Below, in pieces: positions 3,045-58,957 of a DNA stretch of 64,000 nucleotides. Under the pieces are notes generated by a model. That model did not search any database, was not told the origin of the DNA, and saw only the letters and a list, made by a program, of their open reading frames with translations. This DNA comes from Candidatus Harrisonbacteria bacterium (GTDB lineage: Bacteria > Patescibacteriota > Minisyncoccia > UBA6257 > 02-FULL-45-10c), in NCBI GenBank assembly GCA_016214655.1, contig JACROC010000002.1, positions 67,801 to 131,800 on the forward strand, in the 5' to 3' direction. Numbering within the stretch: position 1 is the first letter of the stretch; each line of letters starts with the position of its first letter. A program made the translations under genes and the position numbers.

Positions 3045-3073
3045 AAGAAATTAAAAACCCGTGAATTCACGGG
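3045..3073 (-). terminator. Rho-independent terminator after the 92-aa gene
   Basis: Perfect palindrome cccgtgaa/ttcacggg (3058..3073), followed on the minus strand by a T-run. Confidence 0.6.
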
Positions 3074-8793: not shown

Positions 8794-8816
8794 AATAGTG
8801 TATCATGGACACTAAC
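8794..8816. promoter_or_regulatory. Candidate NrtR operator 1 (AATAGTGT-N7-ACACTAAC) upstream of pncA-pncB
   Basis: A palindrome TAGTGT-N7-ACACTA that also occurs at 11052..11074 and 15943..15965. All three are in promoter regions of NAD/ADP-ribose genes. Confidence 0.5.
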
Positions 8817-11051: not shown

Positions 11052-11074
11052 TTAGTGTACTAATTACACTTTAT
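11052..11074. promoter_or_regulatory. Candidate NrtR operator 2 (TTAGTGT-N7-ACACTTT) in the divergent region between the Nudix-fusion gene and a methyltransferase
   Basis: Same TAGTGT-N7-ACACT architecture as sites 1 and 3. Confidence 0.45.
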
Positions 11075-13331: not shown

Positions 13332-14012
13332 TTAAAAGAATTTCTTCAATTCTGTCGGCTTGGTAGTAATGAACTGATAAAGCTTCGCTGGGCGCTGAGG
13401 CGTGCCGGAAAGCATTTTACGGGTAGATCGCATTAATCCAAGAGATAAAAATTTCTTACGGAAATTCCGCTTATCCAATTTTTTATCCAAAATTATCTCA
13501 TAAGCGCTCTGAAGCTGATTGAGGGTAAAATATTTCGGCAATAAAGAAAATACCACATTAGTATATCCCAGCTTCGCCTGCAGCCGCTTGACGGCATAGC
13601 TGATTATATTTTTATGATCAAAAGCAACCGCCGGAAGCTTCTTTACCGGATGAAACGCCGGGGTTTGCAAATCGCCGCTTCCTTCAAACCCGATTTTATC
13701 CCGCGGCACAAGCGCAAAATAAGCAACAGTCAGCACGTGGCCGCGCGGATCGCGTCCCAAACTGTCAAAAGTATAAAGCTGTTCCGCATAAACATTTCTA
13801 ACTCCGGCTTTTTCCTTTAAAATCCTGAGCGCGCCTTGCTCTGAAGTTTCATTCCTTAAAAGAAAACCTCCTGGCAAGGCCCAGGATCCTTTGAATGGCT
13901 GGTCAGCTCTTTTAATTAATAAAACCTTTAATTGGCCGTCTTCTATAGTAAAAATGACGGTATCTACGGTAACTGCTGGCGGTGTGTATAATTTCATAAT
14001 TCTTTTAGCCAA
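13332..14012 (-). CDS. nrtR: NrtR-family transcriptional regulator (Nudix-like domain plus C-terminal winged helix)
   Basis: Nudix-like 'LPGGFLLRNETSEQGALRILKEKAG' with the C-terminal 'FTLNQLQSAYEIILDKKLDKRNFRKKFLSLGL' signature of NrtR regulators. Confidence 0.75.
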   Translation of the reverse strand: MAKRIMKLYTPPAVTVDTVIFTIEDGQLKVLLIKRADQPFKGSWALPGGFLLRNETSEQGALRILKEKAGVRNVYAEQLYTFDSLGRDPRGHVLTVAYFALVPRDKIGFEGSGDLQTPAFHPVKKLPAVAFDHKNIISYAVKRLQAKLGYTNVVFSLLPKYFTLNQLQSAYEIILDKKLDKRNFRKKFLSLGLMRSTRKMLSGTPQRPAKLYQFITTKPTELKKFF

Positions 14013-15942: not shown

Positions 15943-15965
15943 AATAGTGTCACTTTTACACTATT
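15943..15965. promoter_or_regulatory. Candidate NrtR operator 3 (AATAGTGT-N7-ACACTATT) in the 41-bp nadE/nadK divergent intergenic region
   Basis: The most symmetric copy of the TAGTGT-N7-ACACTA palindrome. Confidence 0.5.
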
Positions 15966-16823: not shown

Positions 16824-16856
16824 AAAAAGGCTCTCTTTCGAGAGCCTTCAATTTTT
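16824..16856. terminator. Bidirectional terminator hairpin (ggctctc-tttc-gagagcc); left copy of a ~50-bp direct repeat
   Basis: A-run, 7-bp stem, T-run. About 85% identical over ~50 bp to 20803..20852. Confidence 0.6.
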
Positions 16857-16869
16857 GAAAAAGAACTAA

Positions 16870-18708
16870 TTACTTTTCGCCGTTCAGCGCAACTTTCTGA
16901 GCCTGCAGCTGAACGCGCATCTGGTCAGCCATCGTTTCAACATTCTTCTTGTACGATTCATCGCGATACCGCCTCTCAACCTCAAACTGCTGTTCCAGCG
17001 CAGTCATAATCAGTTCCGCGGTAAGCGGCTGATAGAGCTTTTTGACAAGCTCCGTCCGCTCATCCCAAGATCTAGTCCGGAATGCTGACGGATTAGTAAA
17101 CCACTCTTCTGGAATCTCAAAATCCGACGCTTGAGCAATGGCCACCTGAATGGCATTCTTTACCGGTCTGCCGGTAAATTTCGGATCTCTGGCACGAAGC
17201 TCGGCGCAAAGCTTTCCGATATTCTCCCAAGTACCACCTTTCTTTCCTTTATACATCTTCTGGATTTCCGGAGAAAACAGCGATGCAATCTTATCCGGAG
17301 CCGGCCTGGACATCGGAACGTATTCCCCTTGGGAAACTTCCAAAAGTCCGGTCTTCTTGAAATTCCGAAGCTCATGCGCGACAAGATCAGTGTAATCTTC
17401 CGTACTCTGCGGTCCCTGGATGATAGCGCGATAGACAAACCTCTGCCTGAGCGCATCATCAGTCGCCGTCGGCTTATTCGTCGCCGCCACCGCAATGTAG
17501 TTGCCAATGTAATTGGTGCCGGTACCGGCAAAAAAGTCCATCAAAGCTTTCATGATGTCCATATCCGCGCCGCTGGTTCCAGCCGTATCTCGATTGCCGG
17601 ACAAAAGAAGATCGATGTCATCAACAAAAAGCAAAGTCAGAGTCGCCGGATCCTTAACCACTTCTAGTAACTGAGCAATCAGCTGGGCGGTTTTTCCATA
17701 CCACTCGCTCTTAATCTGATCGGCACTAATGGACTTGAAATTATACGGTGTCGCCATCTGCTCGGCACGCATCGCCAAATGAGTCATCATCATCCGCTGG
17801 CGGATAGTCTTACCGGTACCAGGAGGGCCGTCAACTAAAATTGATTCAATCAGTCCGCCGAAATCCGAAATCGGATTTTTCTGTAACATTGGATCATAGA
17901 GTGCCAACCGGTCGCACAATCTCCGCATCATAATTGTGACATCAGGATCACCGACAACTTCATTCGGCTGAACCGGCGCCCAGCTCATGATTTGGATTTC
18001 CTTACGATCATCAACCTTCAATCCAGTGACCGCAAAACTTCCAAGATGGAAAGTAGTGTGGTTTACCGGAGCCAGCAATTCCGCCGGAGTTTCGTTCACC
18101 GCGGCTACCGCTTTTACGGAAACCGCTTTCCAATAATCCCTGGTAACCGCCAAAAGATCTCCAGTATTTTGAATCAAAGATACGCCGCCGGTCGTTGTGA
18201 CCCTCAAGGCATCGGTGTAATAAGAAAGTGCCCAGGTCAGGTCAATGGAAACTCCTTTGCCGACCACTAATTCGCAATTGTTGGTATCCAGCTGTGCCAC
18301 TTGAGGATTATTCTTTTTCCGAAGCTCTTTTTCGCAGCGGGCCACGATATAGCTCGCCATCACAAAAAAAGAATAGGCGCTGATAAACTTAGCTTTCGTC
18401 TGAATAGCTGGAGTTATGGGAATTCCCTGATTTTTCGCTTCCTCCACAGCTCTGCGCTGTCCGGTGCGATCCATTAAGAGATCAAAGAAATAGAGATAAA
18501 GACAAGTTGCCTGGCGAAGAATGTAAACCAACGCCAGCTCTTCCGGAAGCGTCCGGTATGTCTCTTTAGGAGACAACTGCCTGAAAACATCTTCAATATC
18601 ATCCTTGCCCTTCACGCTCTTTAAATGCTTTTCTGCGATTGAAGTCCATTTCTCCAGATCCGCGTCAGTGATCGGGTGCGACTGTTTGGTCGTCGGCACT
18701 TCAGCCAC
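16870..18708 (-). CDS. AAA-family ATPase with a large N-terminal domain of unknown function
   Basis: Walker A 'GPPGTGKT', Walker B 'LLFVDDID', sensor 'ATNKP', Arg finger 'RQRF'. GC-rich. Confidence 0.7.
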   Translation of the reverse strand: MAEVPTTKQSHPITDADLEKWTSIAEKHLKSVKGKDDIEDVFRQLSPKETYRTLPEELALVYILRQATCLYLYFFDLLMDRTGQRRAVEEAKNQGIPITPAIQTKAKFISAYSFFVMASYIVARCEKELRKKNNPQVAQLDTNNCELVVGKGVSIDLTWALSYYTDALRVTTTGGVSLIQNTGDLLAVTRDYWKAVSVKAVAAVNETPAELLAPVNHTTFHLGSFAVTGLKVDDRKEIQIMSWAPVQPNEVVGDPDVTIMMRRLCDRLALYDPMLQKNPISDFGGLIESILVDGPPGTGKTIRQRMMMTHLAMRAEQMATPYNFKSISADQIKSEWYGKTAQLIAQLLEVVKDPATLTLLFVDDIDLLLSGNRDTAGTSGADMDIMKALMDFFAGTGTNYIGNYIAVAATNKPTATDDALRQRFVYRAIIQGPQSTEDYTDLVAHELRNFKKTGLLEVSQGEYVPMSRPAPDKIASLFSPEIQKMYKGKKGGTWENIGKLCAELRARDPKFTGRPVKNAIQVAIAQASDFEIPEEWFTNPSAFRTRSWDERTELVKKLYQPLTAELIMTALEQQFEVERRYRDESYKKNVETMADQMRVQLQAQKVALNGEK

Positions 18709-19462: not shown

Positions 19463-19500
19463 AGCATACTTGACAAAATAGTTTCAGAAATGTTAGTATA
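19463..19500. promoter_or_regulatory. Divergent promoter region with an inverted TTGACAA repeat
   Basis: cttgtcaa-N10-ttgacaa. TTGACA-18-TAGTAT on the plus strand for the 19580 gene. The reverse TTGACA-17-TATCAT serves the 19379 gene. Confidence 0.45.
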
Positions 19501-19579
19501 TCTTCAGCACTAAACAACACGAAGACAACGACGTTTAGTATTAGCTAAGCCGCAGTTTCACACTGCGGCAGGAGGCAAA

Positions 19580-20802: not shown

Positions 20803-20836
20803 AAAAAAGCTCTCTTTCGAGAGCTTTCTAATTTTT
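20803..20836. terminator. Bidirectional terminator hairpin (agctctc-tttc-gagagct); right copy of the ~50-bp direct repeat
   Basis: Near-identical core to 16824..16856. Confidence 0.6.
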
Positions 20837-20851
20837 ATAAAGAACAAATAA

Positions 20852-40194: not shown

Positions 40195-40593
40195 TTAATT
40201 TAACTCTTGCACTTCCATAACTTCGTAACCGCTTTCTCCCACATAGACAGGCATAAGCAGCCACTGCCGATACTTCAGCCGAACTTTATTCCCCCTCTCC
40301 ATGGCCAGTGACAGCTTCTTCAAAACCGCTTCGCTCTTTTTATCCACACTGAAATCAAACGGAGCTTGAGTGGCAACCTGCTCTCCTTGCCCAACCTGAA
40401 GCTGAGCCTCGTGGGTTTTGAAAACCACACCCTTCACCGAAAGCTTGGTCACATAACCAACGCGCTCGCCAGTGGAATAATTGGGCATAACTCCGATGAG
40501 ATTAACCTTGGATAAAACCAGACTTCCCAAGATACCAACAATGAAAAGAATAATCATCAGTTCAATCAGCGTGAAACCCCGGCTCTTCTTCAC
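40195..40593 (-). CDS. Type IV pilin / pseudopilin (prepilin-type N-terminal cleavage/methylation domain)
   Basis: 'KKSRG|FTLIELMIILFIVGILG' class III signal. GTG start with RBS aggaggtgggga. Confidence 0.7.
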   Translation of the reverse strand: MKKSRGFTLIELMIILFIVGILGSLVLSKVNLIGVMPNYSTGERVGYVTKLSVKGVVFKTHEAQLQVGQGEQVATQAPFDFSVDKKSEAVLKKLSLAMERGNKVRLKYRQWLLMPVYVGESGYEVMEVQELN

Positions 40594-40680
40594 TCCCCAC
40601 CTCCTTTGGTAAGGTACGACTGGATAAATACTAACACAACGACAATAAAAAGTCAAAACAAAAAGCGCCCTCGCGGCCGC

Positions 40681-41313
40681 TTAGAAGATTGCAAGATCTT
40701 TTAATTCTGGCATTGATTCGATTATAAAATCCGGCTTCATTTTCTTTAATCTTTCGTGATCATGCAGTCCGCCGCAAAATGCAATACTTACACAGCCGGC
40801 GCTTTTTGCATGCCGCACGTCCCCTTCCTGGTCACCGACATAGGCGACCTCGCTAGCAGACAAATCAGCAGCGACCGCAAGATCGTGCAAGGCCTGAGAC
40901 TTATCCGAAACACTGCCGAAAATCTTGAAAAACAAACCATGAAGACCGTATTTTCCCAAAAGCGGCGCAGTGATCGTATTCTGTTGAGTACTTACGATAG
41001 CCAGCAATAATCCATTTGATTTCAACCACCCTAAGGTTTCTTTCAGTCCAACAGCAGGAGCCGGATGTTCTTGGCTCTCGTAGAATTCATTGTAAATCTT
41101 ATAAAGATCGTTATCGCTTGCCATTTCTTCGGTTATTCCGTATTCACGATAGATCCTCGTCCAAGGCTGACCAAACTTTTTCTGCAAAATTTCCAGCGGC
41201 AATAACGGCTTCCCGTACCTCGGGAAAATTCCATTAATCGCTTCCCAAAAAATCTTCGTATCGTCAAAGAGTGTCCCATTCACATCAAACGCCACTAGCT
41301 TAACTTTTTTCAT
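40681..41313 (-). CDS. HAD-superfamily hydrolase (subfamily IA-like)
   Basis: 'KLVAFDVNGTLFDD' motif I and 'YVGDQEGDVRHAKSAG' motif IV. Confidence 0.65.
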   Translation of the reverse strand: MKKVKLVAFDVNGTLFDDTKIFWEAINGIFPRYGKPLLPLEILQKKFGQPWTRIYREYGITEEMASDNDLYKIYNEFYESQEHPAPAVGLKETLGWLKSNGLLLAIVSTQQNTITAPLLGKYGLHGLFFKIFGSVSDKSQALHDLAVAADLSASEVAYVGDQEGDVRHAKSAGCVSIAFCGGLHDHERLKKMKPDFIIESMPELKDLAIF

Positions 41314-41372
41314 ATTTATTATTTTAATCCTAAAGCTACCTGCAGTATAGACCAATCCTTCTTTAAAAATCA

Positions 41373-41519
41373 AAAACCCGCGCAAGCCCGGTATTTTCTA
41401 GTGCTACACTATCATGCAGCTCTATGCTATAGCATAGAGCCGTTCTCATAGTACTATCCTACAAGATAGCACCTATCTATTTTTTAATTTAAAAAATAGT
41501 TCAACAAGCTTCGTCAAAT
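41373..41519. repeat. ~147-bp direct repeat, copy 1
   Basis: Identical over 139 bp to 42401..42539. It contains a 22-bp perfect palindrome gctctatgctatagcatagagc (41420..41441) and a 10-bp palindrome atagtactat. Confidence 0.85.
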
Positions 41520-41738
41520 AAATACCGGATGACCAATAATTGGCACGCGCATCGCAAGCGCAAAAGTCGTTATAAATAATATACCAACCGGAGTCATAAT
41601 AGCGGACCAGAACAACTTATCATAATCTTTCATTTCTCTAAATCTACCATCGCTCGTCTTATAACTAGCTTTGTACCAATTGGTACCTAAAAAGGATAAA
41701 AAAATTCCGGCCAGAAACAGAACCCACCATCCCATCAT
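41514..41738 (-). CDS. Small membrane protein (74 aa)
   Basis: Two predicted TM helices. Its 3' end runs into repeat copy 1. Confidence 0.4.
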   Translation of the reverse strand: MMGWWVLFLAGIFLSFLGTNWYKASYKTSDGRFREMKDYDKLFWSAIMTPVGILFITTFALAMRVPIIGHPVFI

Positions 41739-41837
41739 ATTTTAATTTTATTTTTGCAAACATCTAAAAAGAGATTACATCAAACAAAATATCCGCGCAA
41801 GATCCTCAATCAACCCAAAGTAGCCCAATATCGCATC

Positions 41838-41861
41838 GGCACTACACCGCGGTGTAGTGCC
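41838..41861. promoter_or_regulatory. 24-bp perfect palindrome ggcactacaccg|cggtgtagtgcc
   Basis: Read directly. It lies in the intergenic region upstream of the 74-aa gene. Confidence 0.5.
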
Positions 41862-41913
41862 ATCCCATAAGATACTGCTAATTTCTCTTCACGATTCAAA
41901 AATGAAAAACGGC

Positions 41914-42336
41914 TCATTGAGAGCCGTTGGCTTTCTCTAAACCACCCTTCAAAAATCTTATGTAATATCGAACCTCGGATAATTCTGAACAATCAGCAAG
42001 ATGAGTCATCAAATGCTTATAATCTTTTTCGGTCATCTTAGAGATATCTTCTGGCGGCTTTGGTGTTTCCTTAAATAATTTCTCCAGCTTTTCATCTAGC
42101 ATCTCTTCAATCCTAGTTTCCTTTAGATAAACTAAGAGTGCGTGCGCGCTTTTATGAGATCTGACATGATCTCCTATGCAAATAACAGCTAACGCAACCA
42201 ATCGCCCACATTCAAGCAAGTTATTATAATCCTGTAAATTACGCTTTTTTAATTCCTCCAAAATCAGCGCCAGCGCATCTTCCCTCTCAAATAATTTAAC
42301 CTGACCAGCCCAGTAATTCACCGATCCAGCTCCCAT
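41914..42336 (-). CDS. Hypothetical protein (140 aa)
   Basis: RBS gaggaggttaaATG. A terminator hairpin overlaps its stop codon. Confidence 0.5.
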   Translation of the reverse strand: MGAGSVNYWAGQVKLFEREDALALILEELKKRNLQDYNNLLECGRLVALAVICIGDHVRSHKSAHALLVYLKETRIEEMLDEKLEKLFKETPKPPEDISKMTEKDYKHLMTHLADCSELSEVRYYIRFLKGGLEKANGSQ

Positions 42337-42393
42337 TTTAACCTCCTCAAAAACTATTTATTCAAGAACTACCAAGTATTCTAAATTAGATAT

Positions 42394-42539
42394 AAAAACC
42401 GCGCAAGCCCGGTATTTTCTAGTGCTACACTATCATGCAGCTCTATGCTATAGCATAGAGCCGTTCTCATAGTACTATCCTACAAGATAGCACCTATCTA
42501 TTTTTTAATTTAAAAAATAGTTCAACAAGCTTCGTCAAA
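42394..42539. repeat. ~147-bp direct repeat, copy 2
   Basis: See copy 1; the only difference is a 1-nt indel at the 5' end. Confidence 0.85.
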
Positions 42540-42803
42540 CACAAATAGAAAATTGACTATATAAGAAACTGTTAATCCCAGTAATAACATTTTCCAGCTT
42601 CTCAACCAAACAGCAAGTAAAACCGGGAGCAATAAACTCAAATACCAATAATGAAACATCGGCTCGACAGCTCCCGAAAGAATGGCTAATACCATCCATT
42701 CCTCAGACTTATCAAATAATCTAATAAATGGTATACTGGATTTATGAACATCGAAAAATATCCCCTTTCTGCTCCTCGTAAAAATAAGAGTGATAGAGAA
42801 CAA
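42522..42803 (-). CDS. Small membrane protein (93 aa; possibly 58 aa from an internal Met)
   Basis: Hydrophobic helices. The 5' end overlaps the divergent GDPD gene by 60 nt, so one of the two starts is probably shorter. Confidence 0.35.
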   Translation of the reverse strand: MFSITLIFTRSRKGIFFDVHKSSIPFIRLFDKSEEWMVLAILSGAVEPMFHYWYLSLLLPVLLAVWLRSWKMLLLGLTVSYIVNFLFVFDEAC

Positions 42804-56589: not shown

Positions 56590-58555
<1,966 letters not shown>

Positions 58556-58957
58556 TAAATTTGATTGCAGGAAACCCTCGAACGAGTTTCTCGCAACCAA
58601 ATTCTGTATTGGGACAACTAGAAAATTTTCTTTTTTAATCTTGGACTCGCTCATCCCGCAACACGGGACAAACGATTTTGCTCAATTAACTAATTGATAA
58701 TTTTACCTTTTTGTTTTATCAAAGCGGCGAGTACTATTTTCCGTGAAAATAATACACCCGCCTTGTTCCTCGGTTTCCCAAGAAGCAAGGCGGATGTACT
58801 TTAAAAATCCAAATATTTATTTTTTAATTAAGCACCAATAATCATATTAGTAATATACATTATATTCGCAAACACAAATAGCGTCAATACCCCTCCAAAA
58901 CTTTCTTCCCCGCGCAGTTTAAATGCGCGGAGACTGAAAATTCTCGAGAATTTTCGT

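Follow-up and report, generated by a model that had tools for sequence, protein, structure and literature searches.

Why would two neighbouring intergenic spacers of a bacterial chromosome carry the same hairpin-rich stretch of about 147 bp, in direct orientation and with hardly a difference between them? The question is raised by a 64-kb window (the whole stretch of DNA analysed here) of the chromosome of an uncultivated Candidatus Harrisonbacteria, a member of the CPR known from a MAG. The repeat, called R from here on (copies R1 and R2), fits no element family known so far; most likely it is a structured spacer that was copied locally, and not the boundary of a gene cassette or a transposon. 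In its full form, which we hold with a probability of about 0.4, this reading takes R as a lineage-specific structured spacer that serves as a hairpin barrier or weak terminator in the 3' tail of messages, and that two neighbouring intergenic stretches came to share through recent copying or homogenisation.

The repeat, its copies and their identity

The sequence-only reading of the region had described a repeat of about 147 bp in two copies, 100% identical over 139 bp and 1,020 bp apart. Sequence comparison confirms the repeat and its identity and corrects the measures, since the exact core comprises 141 bp (41378-41518 = 42399-42539) at an offset of 1021. Beyond the core a C-run differs by a 1-nt indel (CCC vs CC) and is followed by AAAAA in both copies (41372-41376 / 42394-42398), and the ungapped match amounts to 99% over 146 nt (41373-41518 vs 42394-42539). 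No residue of homology is left in the flanks of R1 and R2 on either side, the edges of R being sharp, and the 64-kb window holds no copy besides these two. R is non-coding, with stop codons in 6/6 frames.

How much weight can this identity bear? Its length of 141 bp is also the default final k of MEGAHIT, and groundwater CPR MAGs, Harrisonbacteria among them, were assembled with MEGAHIT defaults and IDBA-UD scaffolding (PMC7906910); that the MAG under study (HZB99) is part of that project is an assumption. The duplication, or at least its perfection, might then be partly a product of short-read assembly, arising from a single R with a looped or heterogeneous 1,021-bp path or from two diverged copies that were collapsed, and the arrangements X-R-B-R-Y and X-R-Y plus a B-R loop do yield an identical de Bruijn graph. 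We consider this decidedly improbable: the four junctions (orf57-R, R-orf140, orf74-R and R-HAD) must be in the reads for the graph to hold them, orf140 is found upstream of the HAD gene in the relative L001 too, the similarity of the copies runs past a 141-mer (AAAAA and one indel), and the window is free of Ns. Nonetheless, with the identity equal to the MEGAHIT final k, both the perfect identity and the copy number are to be taken as provisional. The earlier claim that perfect identity implies recent duplication or gene conversion survives in part: this is still the simplest origin, and in a short-read metagenome assembly the identity tells less than it seems to. A repeat whose identical core is as long as the k-mer of the assembler is also a warning on how MAG structure, copy number and 'perfect identity' are read.

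Position among the genes

The local genes all lie on the minus strand, where the order is orf57 (unannotated), R2, orf140, its terminator, orf74, R1, the HAD promoter, the HAD hydrolase gene, ybeY, ftsA and ftsZ (Table 1). The 3' ends of two small ORFs had been said to read into the repeats in different frames, and both stop codons are indeed supplied by R, the TGA of orf74 at 41516-41514 and that of orf57 (or its 93-aa version) at 42524-42522, with ORF overlaps of 5 and 18 nt. The placement of each copy upstream of the next minus-strand gene also holds, the distance to the ATG being 57-58 nt in both cases (HAD at 41313, orf140 at 42336). Read on the transcribed (minus) strand, R begins at the stop of a small hydrophobic ORF and ends in a G+C hairpin plus T5 at the next promoter region.

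Table 1. Features at and around the two copies of the repeat; positions are those of the window.
Feature	Position	Strand	Remarks
HAD-family hydrolase gene	40681..41313	-	downstream of R1
HAD promoter TTGATT-18-TATACT	41344..41373	-	sigma-70-type; abuts R1; kept in relatives without R
R1 (repeat copy 1, 147 bp)	41372..41518	-	flanked by the orf74 stop and the HAD -35 box
Promoter-proximal end of R	41372..41392	-	reads ACCGGGCTTGCGCGG(G)TTTTT: short G+C hairpin and T5; contains CTTGCGCGG
Palindrome TAGTG-CTA-CACTA	41399..41411, also 42420-42432		NrtR-type half-sites, wrong spacing
22-bp perfect palindrome GCTCTATGCTATAGCATAGAGC	41419..41440, also 42440-42461		strongest hairpin of R, -13.3 kcal/mol as RNA
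10-bp palindrome ATAGTACTAT	41448..41457, also 42469-42478		
Palindrome AGATAG-CAC-CTATCT	41464..41478, also 42485-42499		
23-bp A/T palindrome CTATTTTTTAATTTAAAAAATAG	41477..41499, also 42498-42520		
orf74 (HZB99_00775)	41514..41738	-	small hydrophobic orphan protein; stop inside R1
Copy 1 flank AAATACCGG	41520..41528		last orf74 codons; complementary to CCGGTATTT in R (41388-41396), closing the stem
Third local copy of CTTGCGCGG	41793..41801	-	54 nt upstream of orf74
24-bp palindrome GGCACTACACCGCGGTGTAGTGCC	41838-41861		near the third local copy of CTTGCGCGG
orf140 intrinsic terminator	41908..41928	-	8-bp stem, -13.2 kcal/mol, T-run
orf140 (HZB99_00780)	41914..42336	-	helical-bundle protein; strong Shine-Dalgarno sequence
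R2 (repeat copy 2, 146 bp)	42394..42539	-	follows orf57 directly, within the 407-bp spacer that separates orf140 from the divergent 454-aa gene
orf57	42522..42695	-	hydrophobic, unannotated at NCBI; stop inside R2; putative coding
Copy 2 flank TAGAAAAT	42546-42553		pairs with ATTTTCTA (42414-42421)

The two hydrophobic ORFs have marginal coding statistics, equalled by 7.5% of spurious open frames, and orf57 would grow to as much as 93 aa if TTG at 42803 were its start. They show no similarity to each other, nor does either of them to a 158-aa gene of L001, and the idea that they are paralogues or remnants of that gene was dropped on this account. Only two close homologues of orf140 were found. 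Its candidacy as a DNA-binding regulator of R was likewise abandoned, the AlphaFold model being a helical bundle (pLDDT 80) with no PDB match at E < 0.5.

Palindromes and folding

Each copy carries the 22-bp perfect palindrome and the 10-bp palindrome that had been pointed out before, and the further inverted repeats mentioned alongside them proved to be three more palindromes, making five local palindromes in all. Allowing up to 3 mismatches, the window has 2 matches to the 22-bp palindrome, and 100 shuffles have none. The tetramer ATAG/CTAT occurs 11 times in the 147 nt of R where 0.86 would be expected (an excess of about 13-fold), against at most 5 in any other 147-nt window and at most 8 in 5000 shuffles of R; these tetramers stand as inverted pairs. 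Spacerless perfect palindromes are, in turn, the usual form of intergenic hairpins in this genome.

Folding, which had been proposed as a check on the repeat, predicts a strong structure that is far stabler than shuffled sequence, with z values of -5.5 (copy 1) and -3.5 (copy 2) for the minus strand of R and its flanks. Both the RNA and the ssDNA folds consist of five separate local hairpins, the ends of R being unpaired with each other; the 22-bp hairpin is strong, but it lacks a U-tract. In the minus-strand fold of either copy the five hairpins sit inside a stem that R forms with the last codons of the upstream ORF, even though the flanks differ, and the null probabilities of these flank/R closing stems are 0.008 and 0.028.

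The promoter-proximal end of R is weakly terminator-like by prediction: its RNA reads ACCGGGCUUGCGCGG(G)UUUUU, the 3' end being GCGCGG(G)TTTTT in DNA letters, and the terminal hairpin reaches -6.4 to -7.3 kcal/mol, with no call for it in the terminator scan. A related motif, ccgcgcaag, had been noticed at about 41795, and CCGCGCAAG is in fact present at 41793-41801; the window has 5 copies of it against 0.79 expected, 2/5 of them inside coding regions. Together with GGCACTACACCGCGGTGTAGTGCC, the CTTGCGCGG at this place might mark a decayed R-like spacer, which the statistics do not support. A third, decayed copy of R at 41739-41925 was in this sense considered and rejected, its alignment score of 46-51 comparing with a shuffle maximum of 52 and nhmmer giving E = 7.3; a 16/20 match to R plus a colinear CTTGCGCGG make the segment suggestive, below significance.

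Relatives and collections

The comparison covered six loci reached by way of HAD homologues (L002-L007, of which one is the L001 contig) and four reached by way of the 454-aa neighbour (L008-L011); none of them contains R or any ATAG-rich window, and R is absent from relatives whose HAD proteins are 57-74% identical. What stands at the HAD site of L001, L005, L006 and L007 is an ordinary terminator hairpin (-16 to -18 kcal/mol for the three hairpins folded), followed by TTTTGATTT and then by TTGAYT-17/18-TATACT or a close variant. The T-run of the terminator enters the same conserved -35 box in these relatives, and in the window the promoter comes directly after R1. As L001 shares with the window the placement of orf140 upstream of the HAD gene, the genes are resident here and R is the addition. 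For R2 no empty site was found, synteny upstream of the 454-aa gene not being conserved.

Searches of Rfam and of phage, plasmid, viral, genome and metagenome collections returned no match for R. The exact scan with the 22-mer gave 0 matches in genome, metagenome and viral contigs, two other 23-24-mers of R gave 0 exact matches in viral contigs, and the 98 viral matches of a 14-mer core are chance palindromes whose similarity does not extend. Distant-mode blastn against phages and plasmids produced only short A/T-rich chance matches (E >= 0.03), and in Rfam nothing reached the gathering score, the best regional matches having E >= 2.9, far under threshold. Furthermore, a tyrosine recombinase had been suggested as something to look for nearby, and among the ~55 proteins of the window there is no Phage_integrase or other recombinase family, and no transposase, RAYT, integrase or reverse transcriptase either.

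The proposed reading: a structured spacer copied locally

In the mechanism that we propose, transcripts of orf74 and orf57 would carry R1 and R2, respectively, as their 3' tails, where the RNA of R could form a hairpin stack that shields the upstream message from 3' exonucleases and that weakly ends transcription, or insulates it, before the next promoter. Ectopic recombination, gene conversion or template switching, acting from one spacer to the adjacent one, may have given rise to the second copy, with integron or transposase activity probably not involved. For R as a spacer speak its position and orientation, the terminator slot in relatives, the folding, the 3' end and the commonness of such palindromes in the genome; for a local origin of the copies, the sharp edges, the unrelated flanks, the adjacency of the two copies, the lack of mobile-element genes in 64 kb and the gene order shared with L001.

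Like R, the intrinsic terminators of the clade fill the slot between a stop and the next -35 box and combine a G+C hairpin with a T-run. The real terminators here are single G+C-rich hairpins of 8-12 bp, in contrast with R, where a terminal hairpin of about -6 to -7 kcal/mol is preceded by ~120 nt of additional hairpins. Three observations sit uneasily with parts of the mechanism. The terminal hairpin of R is weak for a terminator, real ones here having -13 to -18 kcal/mol, and no U-tract follows the strong 22-bp hairpin. Should orf57 not be expressed, the spacer that holds R2 would be one between divergent promoters, and there would be no upstream message for R2 to end. Finally, a generic hairpin role leaves the 13-fold excess of ATAG/CTAT unexplained, which hints at sequence-specific recognition.

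Alternative explanations

Could R be mobile in its own right, or belong to one of the repeat classes that bound mobile cassettes? A non-autonomous element of the MITE, REP or PATE kind, inserted twice nearby with its enzyme encoded elsewhere in the genome, would account for a discrete, sharp-ended unit in nearly identical copies that is extragenic, adjoins stop codons and gives stops to two unrelated ORFs, that is as rich in hairpins as REP/BIME, RUP and Correia elements, and whose site exists in relatives without it; moreover, further identical copies may be hidden at contig ends, because an assembly with k = 141 would break contigs there. We nevertheless think it unlikely, and the window offers no positive evidence for the earlier proposal of a miniature mobile element: there are no terminal inverted repeats (the first 35 nt against the reverse complement of the last 35 give a best score of 7, p = 0.24), the flanks TTTAAAAATC/TAAATACCGG and AATTAGATAT/CACAAATAGA share no direct repeat under either boundary definition and hence show no target-site duplication, the two copies in 64 kb both fall within 1 kb, the transposase, RAYT, integrase and reverse transcriptase genes are missing from the window, and neither the exact scans of genome, metagenome and viral collections nor blastn of phages and plasmids matched R. 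The REP/BIME (REPIN) sequences of enterobacteria and pseudomonads resemble R in being extragenic, after stops or between cistrons, and in having palindromes that give stable mRNA hairpins, and their role as a 3' exonuclease barrier and site of partial termination is, by analogy, the one that we suggest for R. REP units are imperfect palindromes of 20-40 nt with a conserved GTAG head, present in tens to hundreds per genome and tied to a RAYT transposase; R, unlike them, joins five different palindromes into one 147-bp composite that is seen in two side-by-side copies, with no RAYT in the window and with 2 occurrences of GTAG on its minus strand. Correia/NEMIS of Neisseria, RUP/BOX of pneumococci and ERIC of enterobacteria share with R a length of ~100-160 bp, an intergenic position, strong folding and the ability to provide neighbours with stop codons, terminators or processing sites, but elements of the Correia/RUP/ERIC type have terminal inverted repeats, often a target-site duplication (TA for Correia) and many dispersed copies, all of which R lacks (as to copies, within the 64 kb). 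A bolder version is a long shot: R would be the earliest case seen of a CPR-specific family of small structured elements that travel as units, either promoter-to-terminator or processed RNA, that a dedicated protein recognises by their ATAG/CTAT inverted pairs, and that settle beside sequence able to pair with their own subterminal stretch, with more copies hidden where the contigs of short-read MAGs break. Such settling would explain the complementarity of CCGGTATTTTCTA to both of the flanks, unrelated as these are. That R is an attC site of an integron, or belongs to an integrase-less attC cluster (CALIN), and bounds a two-gene cassette is hardly credible. R does consist of direct repeats of attC-like length (57-141 bp in attC/CALIN) after small co-oriented ORFs, with one GTTGAAC/GTTCAAC heptamer per copy. 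However, attC needs paired R''/R' and L''/L' boxes and one long bulged bottom-strand hairpin, and R fails these defining structural features: no second core site (RYYYAAC/GTTRRRY partner) exists at its other end on either strand, its ends are not complementary, and it forms five local hairpins rather than one bulged hairpin. With no integrase in 64 kb and the bracketed orf140 resident at the HAD locus of L001, the attC-like cassette boundary put forward by the sequence-only reading is not supported. DGR template/variable repeats, common in CPR, are likewise two near-identical direct repeats of ~100-150 bp within ~1 kb, one of them touching an ORF 3' end; unlike R1 and R2, they have adenine mismatches, a variable repeat in the coding 3' end of the target gene and an adjacent reverse transcriptase, and a DGR pair was discarded given 0 substitutions in 141 bp, ORF overlaps of 5 and 18 nt and no reverse transcriptase in the window. 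To our knowledge, R does not fit the features of dif/Xer, parS, SlmA, CRESS/rolling-circle origins, retron ncRNA, IS110 bridge RNA, TnpB omega-RNA or TIGR arrays either, and their partner genes are absent.

Other explanations leave R in place and give it a different function. Judging from the sequence, R could be a binding array at the DNA level, operator-like or architectural, with ATAG/CTAT as half-sites, through which one regulator would control both the HAD gene and orf140. The 11 inverted-pair tetramers would suit it, as would the equal distance from R to the start codon in both copies in spite of the unrelated DNA between them, the place of R2 in a divergent spacer whose upstream gene is unannotated at NCBI, and a palindrome with the half-sites of NrtR-type boxes (TAGTGT-N7-ACACTA), three of which occur in the NAD gene cluster of the window. 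We find such an array quite unlikely. The five palindromes are unlike each other in sequence, arm length and spacing, which is not the look of a single repeated operator; R stops upstream of the -35 box without overlapping the promoter; and orf140 is simply a helical bundle that matches no DNA-binding fold. An NrtR operator (a 19-21-bp palindrome) in particular was set aside, the spacing of TAGTG-CTA-CACTA being wrong and R containing no match to the box at <=2 mismatches. The suggestion of a repeated promoter module fares no better for the HAD gene, its sigma-70-type promoter lying just outside R and being conserved in relatives without R. R may, alternatively, be a self-contained sRNA gene, or else serve as the 3' target region in a pair of the type I toxin-antitoxin kind with the small hydrophobic ORFs; in either case it would have been duplicated as a unit. 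The minus strand of the duplicated unit has TTGACG at its start and the hairpin with T5 at its end, so that it spans from a -35-like box to a terminator-like end, its predicted structure is strong, and both copies come directly after small hydrophobic ORFs whose length (57-74 aa) and character are those of type I toxins. This strikes us as improbable, given that no acceptable -10 box lies 16-19 nt past TTGACG, that the promoter scan inside R found, on both strands, nothing but one weak plus-strand site straddling the edge of R1 (and no convincing plus-strand promoter common to both copies), that no Rfam family matches at E < 2.9, and that orf74 and orf57 are mutually unrelated and doubtful as real genes; no homologue of R came from the collections searched, and for this reason covariation offers no support.

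Implications

CPR/Patescibacteria have small, gene-dense genomes, and their non-coding elements are almost unstudied. As a locally copied structured spacer, R would be a small example of how terminator/promoter junctions are remodelled in such genomes, a hairpin-dense spacer having been copied between intergenic regions. A direct repeat of 141 bp also exposes the 875 bp between its copies, which hold orf140 and orf74, to deletion through homologous recombination. If more copies of R exist, they may give a handle on an undescribed repeat family.

The repeat and its genomic setting

The palindrome-rich repeat R, reported by the sequence-only reading, was recovered in both direct copies, R1 and R2, identical over exactly 141 bp (41378-41518 = 42399-42539, offset 1021), the match continuing through AAAAA past a one-base difference in a C-run. 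On both sides, the flanks of the two copies resemble each other only at chance level, and the unit has, therefore, sharp ends. No further copy was found in the 64 kb by a window-wide repeat search and nhmmer, and both sites of the 22-bp palindrome in the window fall in R (0 in shuffles). In the orf140-orf74 spacer, CTTGCGCGG plus a 16/20 match hinted at a decayed third copy of R, which was rejected as not significant. R has 38% G+C, versus 43.7% in the window, stop codons in all six frames and five local palindromes (13, 22, 10, 15 and 23 bp). It also holds 11 ATAG/CTAT tetramers where 0.86 are expected (every other 147-nt window has five or fewer, and 5000 shuffles of R reached a maximum of eight), an excess that is left without explanation.

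The window, an unremarkable stretch of CPR chromosome, contains ftsZ, ftsA, ybeY, hisS, S21, genes for 16S rRNA and the type IV pilus, an NAD-metabolism cluster and no tRNA genes. The local genes around R are all encoded on the minus strand. The stop codons of two small ORFs, orf74 and orf57/93, fall within R (5 and 18 nt in, respectively, in different frames), and in both copies 57-58 nt separate the end of R from the next start codon. The 140-aa and 74-aa proteins, encoded by orf140 and orf74, match HZB99_00780 and HZB99_00775, respectively, from a Candidatus Harrisonbacteria MAG at 100% identity; orf74 retrieved itself alone among 1.84 billion representatives, and orf140 has two close homologues only, its predicted model being a helical bundle for which the structure search gave no match. 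The coding statistics of orf74 and orf57 are marginal (7.5% of spurious open frames score equally), and orf57 may not be a gene. The genes flanking R tell little about it.

Features around the repeats and elsewhere in the window
Feature	Coordinates	Strand	Remarks
orf57/93 (93 aa from TTG 42803)	42803 or 42695 to 42522	-	First in minus-strand order; without NCBI annotation
R2	42394-42539	-	Between orf57/93 and orf140
orf140		-	After R2
Good terminator	41928-41908	-	After orf140
Spacer with 24-bp perfect palindrome and third CTTGCGCGG	41838-41861 (palindrome)		Between orf140 terminator and orf74
orf74		-	Ahead of R1
R1	41372-41518	-	Between orf74 and HAD promoter
HAD promoter, TTGATT-18-TATACT	41373-41344	-	After R1
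HAD hydrolase, then pilin-like gene, ybeY, ftsA, ftsZ		-	End of minus-strand order
Pilin-like gene	40195-40656	-	N-terminal methylation motif; between HAD and ybeY
TTATCA-17-(TG)TATACT	42709-42746	+	Promoter-like; ends 6 nt before HZB99_00785 ATG
TAGTGT-N7-ACACTA	8796-8814, 11053-11071, 15945-15963		Three near-perfect palindromes; intergenic, NAD cluster
Weaker box	19494-19512
Nudix + NrtR winged-helix regulator	13335-14012	-	NAD cluster
Terminator-containing 47-nt segments	16824-16870, 20803-20849		85% identical (AAAAAGGCTCTCTTTCGAGAGCCTT...)
16S rRNA gene	57148-58556	-	Match spans 1409 nt of 1533-position model
Group II intron D1-D4 domain match	56874-56950	-	Rfam, 37.9 bits against a gathering score of 35; directly 3' of 16S gene

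Some other features deserve mention. The 454-aa gene HZB99_00785 has no Pfam match, one JGI homologue being labelled glycerophosphoryl diester phosphodiesterase, and the closeness of its promoter-like site to the ATG means that its mRNA may be leaderless. The two 47-nt segments are another case of like hairpin modules at separate intergenic sites. The group II intron match has no neighbouring ORF of at least 90 aa that could be, for instance, a reverse transcriptase. The NAD cluster (NAPRTase, isochorismatase/PncA-like, ADP-ribosylglycohydrolase, NadE and NAD kinase, besides the regulator) and its boxes, with four matches at two or fewer mismatches against 0.69 expected, look like an NrtR regulon in a CPR genome. 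The 24-bp palindrome, GGCACTACACCGCGGTGTAGTGCC, contains everted half-sites CACTA...TAGTG, also present in R and the NrtR-type boxes.

Comparison with related loci

The HAD proteins of seven related Patescibacteria loci (L001-L007, with L001 and L003 on the same contig) are 57-74% identical to that of the window, and R is absent from all seven. Where enough upstream sequence is available (L001, L004, L005 and L007), the R1 position is taken by a single canonical terminator hairpin (-16 to -18 kcal/mol as folded from L001, L005 and L007), whose T-run leads into the -35 box of a promoter conserved as TTGAYT-17/18-TATACT or a near variant of it, and the window has this promoter directly after R1. 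Therefore, R occupies a “terminator slot”, with the HAD promoter outside it, which, for HAD, runs counter to the suggestion of a repeated promoter module; that promoter is older than R. In L001, an orf140 homologue also lies upstream of HAD, with an unrelated 158-aa membrane/zinc-ribbon gene in between, so that orf140 is resident at the locus, of which only the small ORF and R vary. It is therefore hard to see the repeats as marking the two ends of a cassette of two genes brought in from elsewhere. Homologues of the divergent 454-aa gene lie in differing contexts, and no empty R2 site was recovered from them.

The compact junction hairpin-TTTT-GAYTTT, 17-18 nt, TATACT or a close variant is kept across relatives (window 41344-41380; L001 ~905-960; L004, L005 and L007, ahead of their HAD genes). 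The pilin-like gene is missing between HAD and ybeY in L001 and L007, which makes the neighbourhood a likely hotspot for small lineage-specific insertions.

Predicted folding

In predicted folds, the minus strand of R plus flanks is far more stable than shuffled sequence (copy 1, -54.5 kcal/mol, z -5.5; copy 2, -52.1 kcal/mol, z -3.5) and forms a row of hairpins; these local hairpins also form in the plus strand and in single-stranded DNA, as palindromes predict. Only the 22-bp palindrome is strong alone (-13.3 kcal/mol); the last element before T5, ACCGGGCUUGCGCGG(G), is weak (-6.4 to -7.3 kcal/mol) and was not called by the terminator scan. Moreover, the sequence that adjoins each copy at its ORF-proximal end can, in both cases, pair with one subterminal stretch of R, CCGGTATTTTCTA, with 9 complementary nt for copy 1 and 8 for copy 2 (null probabilities 0.008 and 0.028), the flanks being unrelated. 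This pairing, which closes the hairpins into one domain in both predicted folds, is a second feature without explanation.

Candidate identities and proposed function

Known families offered no relative of R: no Rfam family reached its gathering score (all matches in the region have E >=2.9), exact scans with pieces of R gave 0 matches in genome, metagenome and viral collections, and blastn against phage and plasmid records returned only short A/T-rich chance matches. Some IMG/VR phage contigs carry the core TATGCTATAGCATA in regularly spaced tandem copies (e.g., L012 1023-1134, three of them 49 nt apart; L105 ~256-400), without wider similarity to R; these are probably phage regulatory palindromes.

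At a rough probability of 0.4, the favoured reading is that R is a lineage-specific, non-coding, hairpin-dense spacer that fills the gap from the end of a small ORF to the promoter that follows. It would probably be transcribed as the 3' tail of the small ORF, where its hairpins would form a barrier and terminate transcription weakly, a function in which it resembles REP/BIME elements; recombination or template switching would recently have copied or homogenised it between the two neighbouring spacers. The weaknesses of this reading are the predicted feebleness of the terminal hairpin, the doubtful reality of orf57 (both small ORFs being marginal) and the ATAG/CTAT excess left over.

A non-autonomous mobile element is rather unlikely, no terminal inverted repeats (p = 0.24), target-site duplication or dispersed copies within the window having been found for the miniature element formerly suggested; a Pfam scan of the ~55 window proteins found no integrase, transposase, RAYT or reverse transcriptase. 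DGR repeats were discarded as well (no A-specific differences between copies, no RT). An array of protein-binding sites is unlikely. Perfect spacerless palindromes are the usual intergenic hairpin form in this genome (e.g., at 3057, 8852 and 58936), and the symmetry of R alone is thus no argument for protein recognition. An NrtR operator was discarded too, R having the half-sites TAGTG/CACTA at the wrong spacing. A small-RNA gene (the structured small RNA of the sequence-only reading) or a type I TA-like module is improbable; the unit suggestively starts with TTGACG and ends with a hairpin plus T5, but an acceptable -10 box is missing after TTGACG, and no homologue was found for covariation. 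An attC-like boundary is scarcely credible, with a lone GTTCAAC/GTTGAAC heptamer per copy lacking a partner at the other end, non-complementary ends and a fold other than a single bulged hairpin.

That the structure was shaped by assembly is also quite improbable. The identical 141 bp equal the MEGAHIT default final k, and groundwater CPR MAGs including Harrisonbacteria, a set to which this MAG may belong, were assembled with MEGAHIT defaults and IDBA-UD scaffolding (PMC7906910). Due to this coincidence, a single chromosomal R with a 1,021-bp path that is looped or varies in the population would give the same graph. It is nevertheless very unlikely that the repeat was invented, since the graph needs all four junctions in reads and a relative supports the order orf140-then-HAD. 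The claim that perfect identity implies very recent duplication is weakened in that small differences between copies may have been collapsed. Furthermore, contigs are interrupted at repeats that are identical over more than 141 bases, so that other copies of R could go unnoticed at the ends of contigs, and the count of two is a minimum. In general kind, R is a familiar type of repeat, though an orphan.
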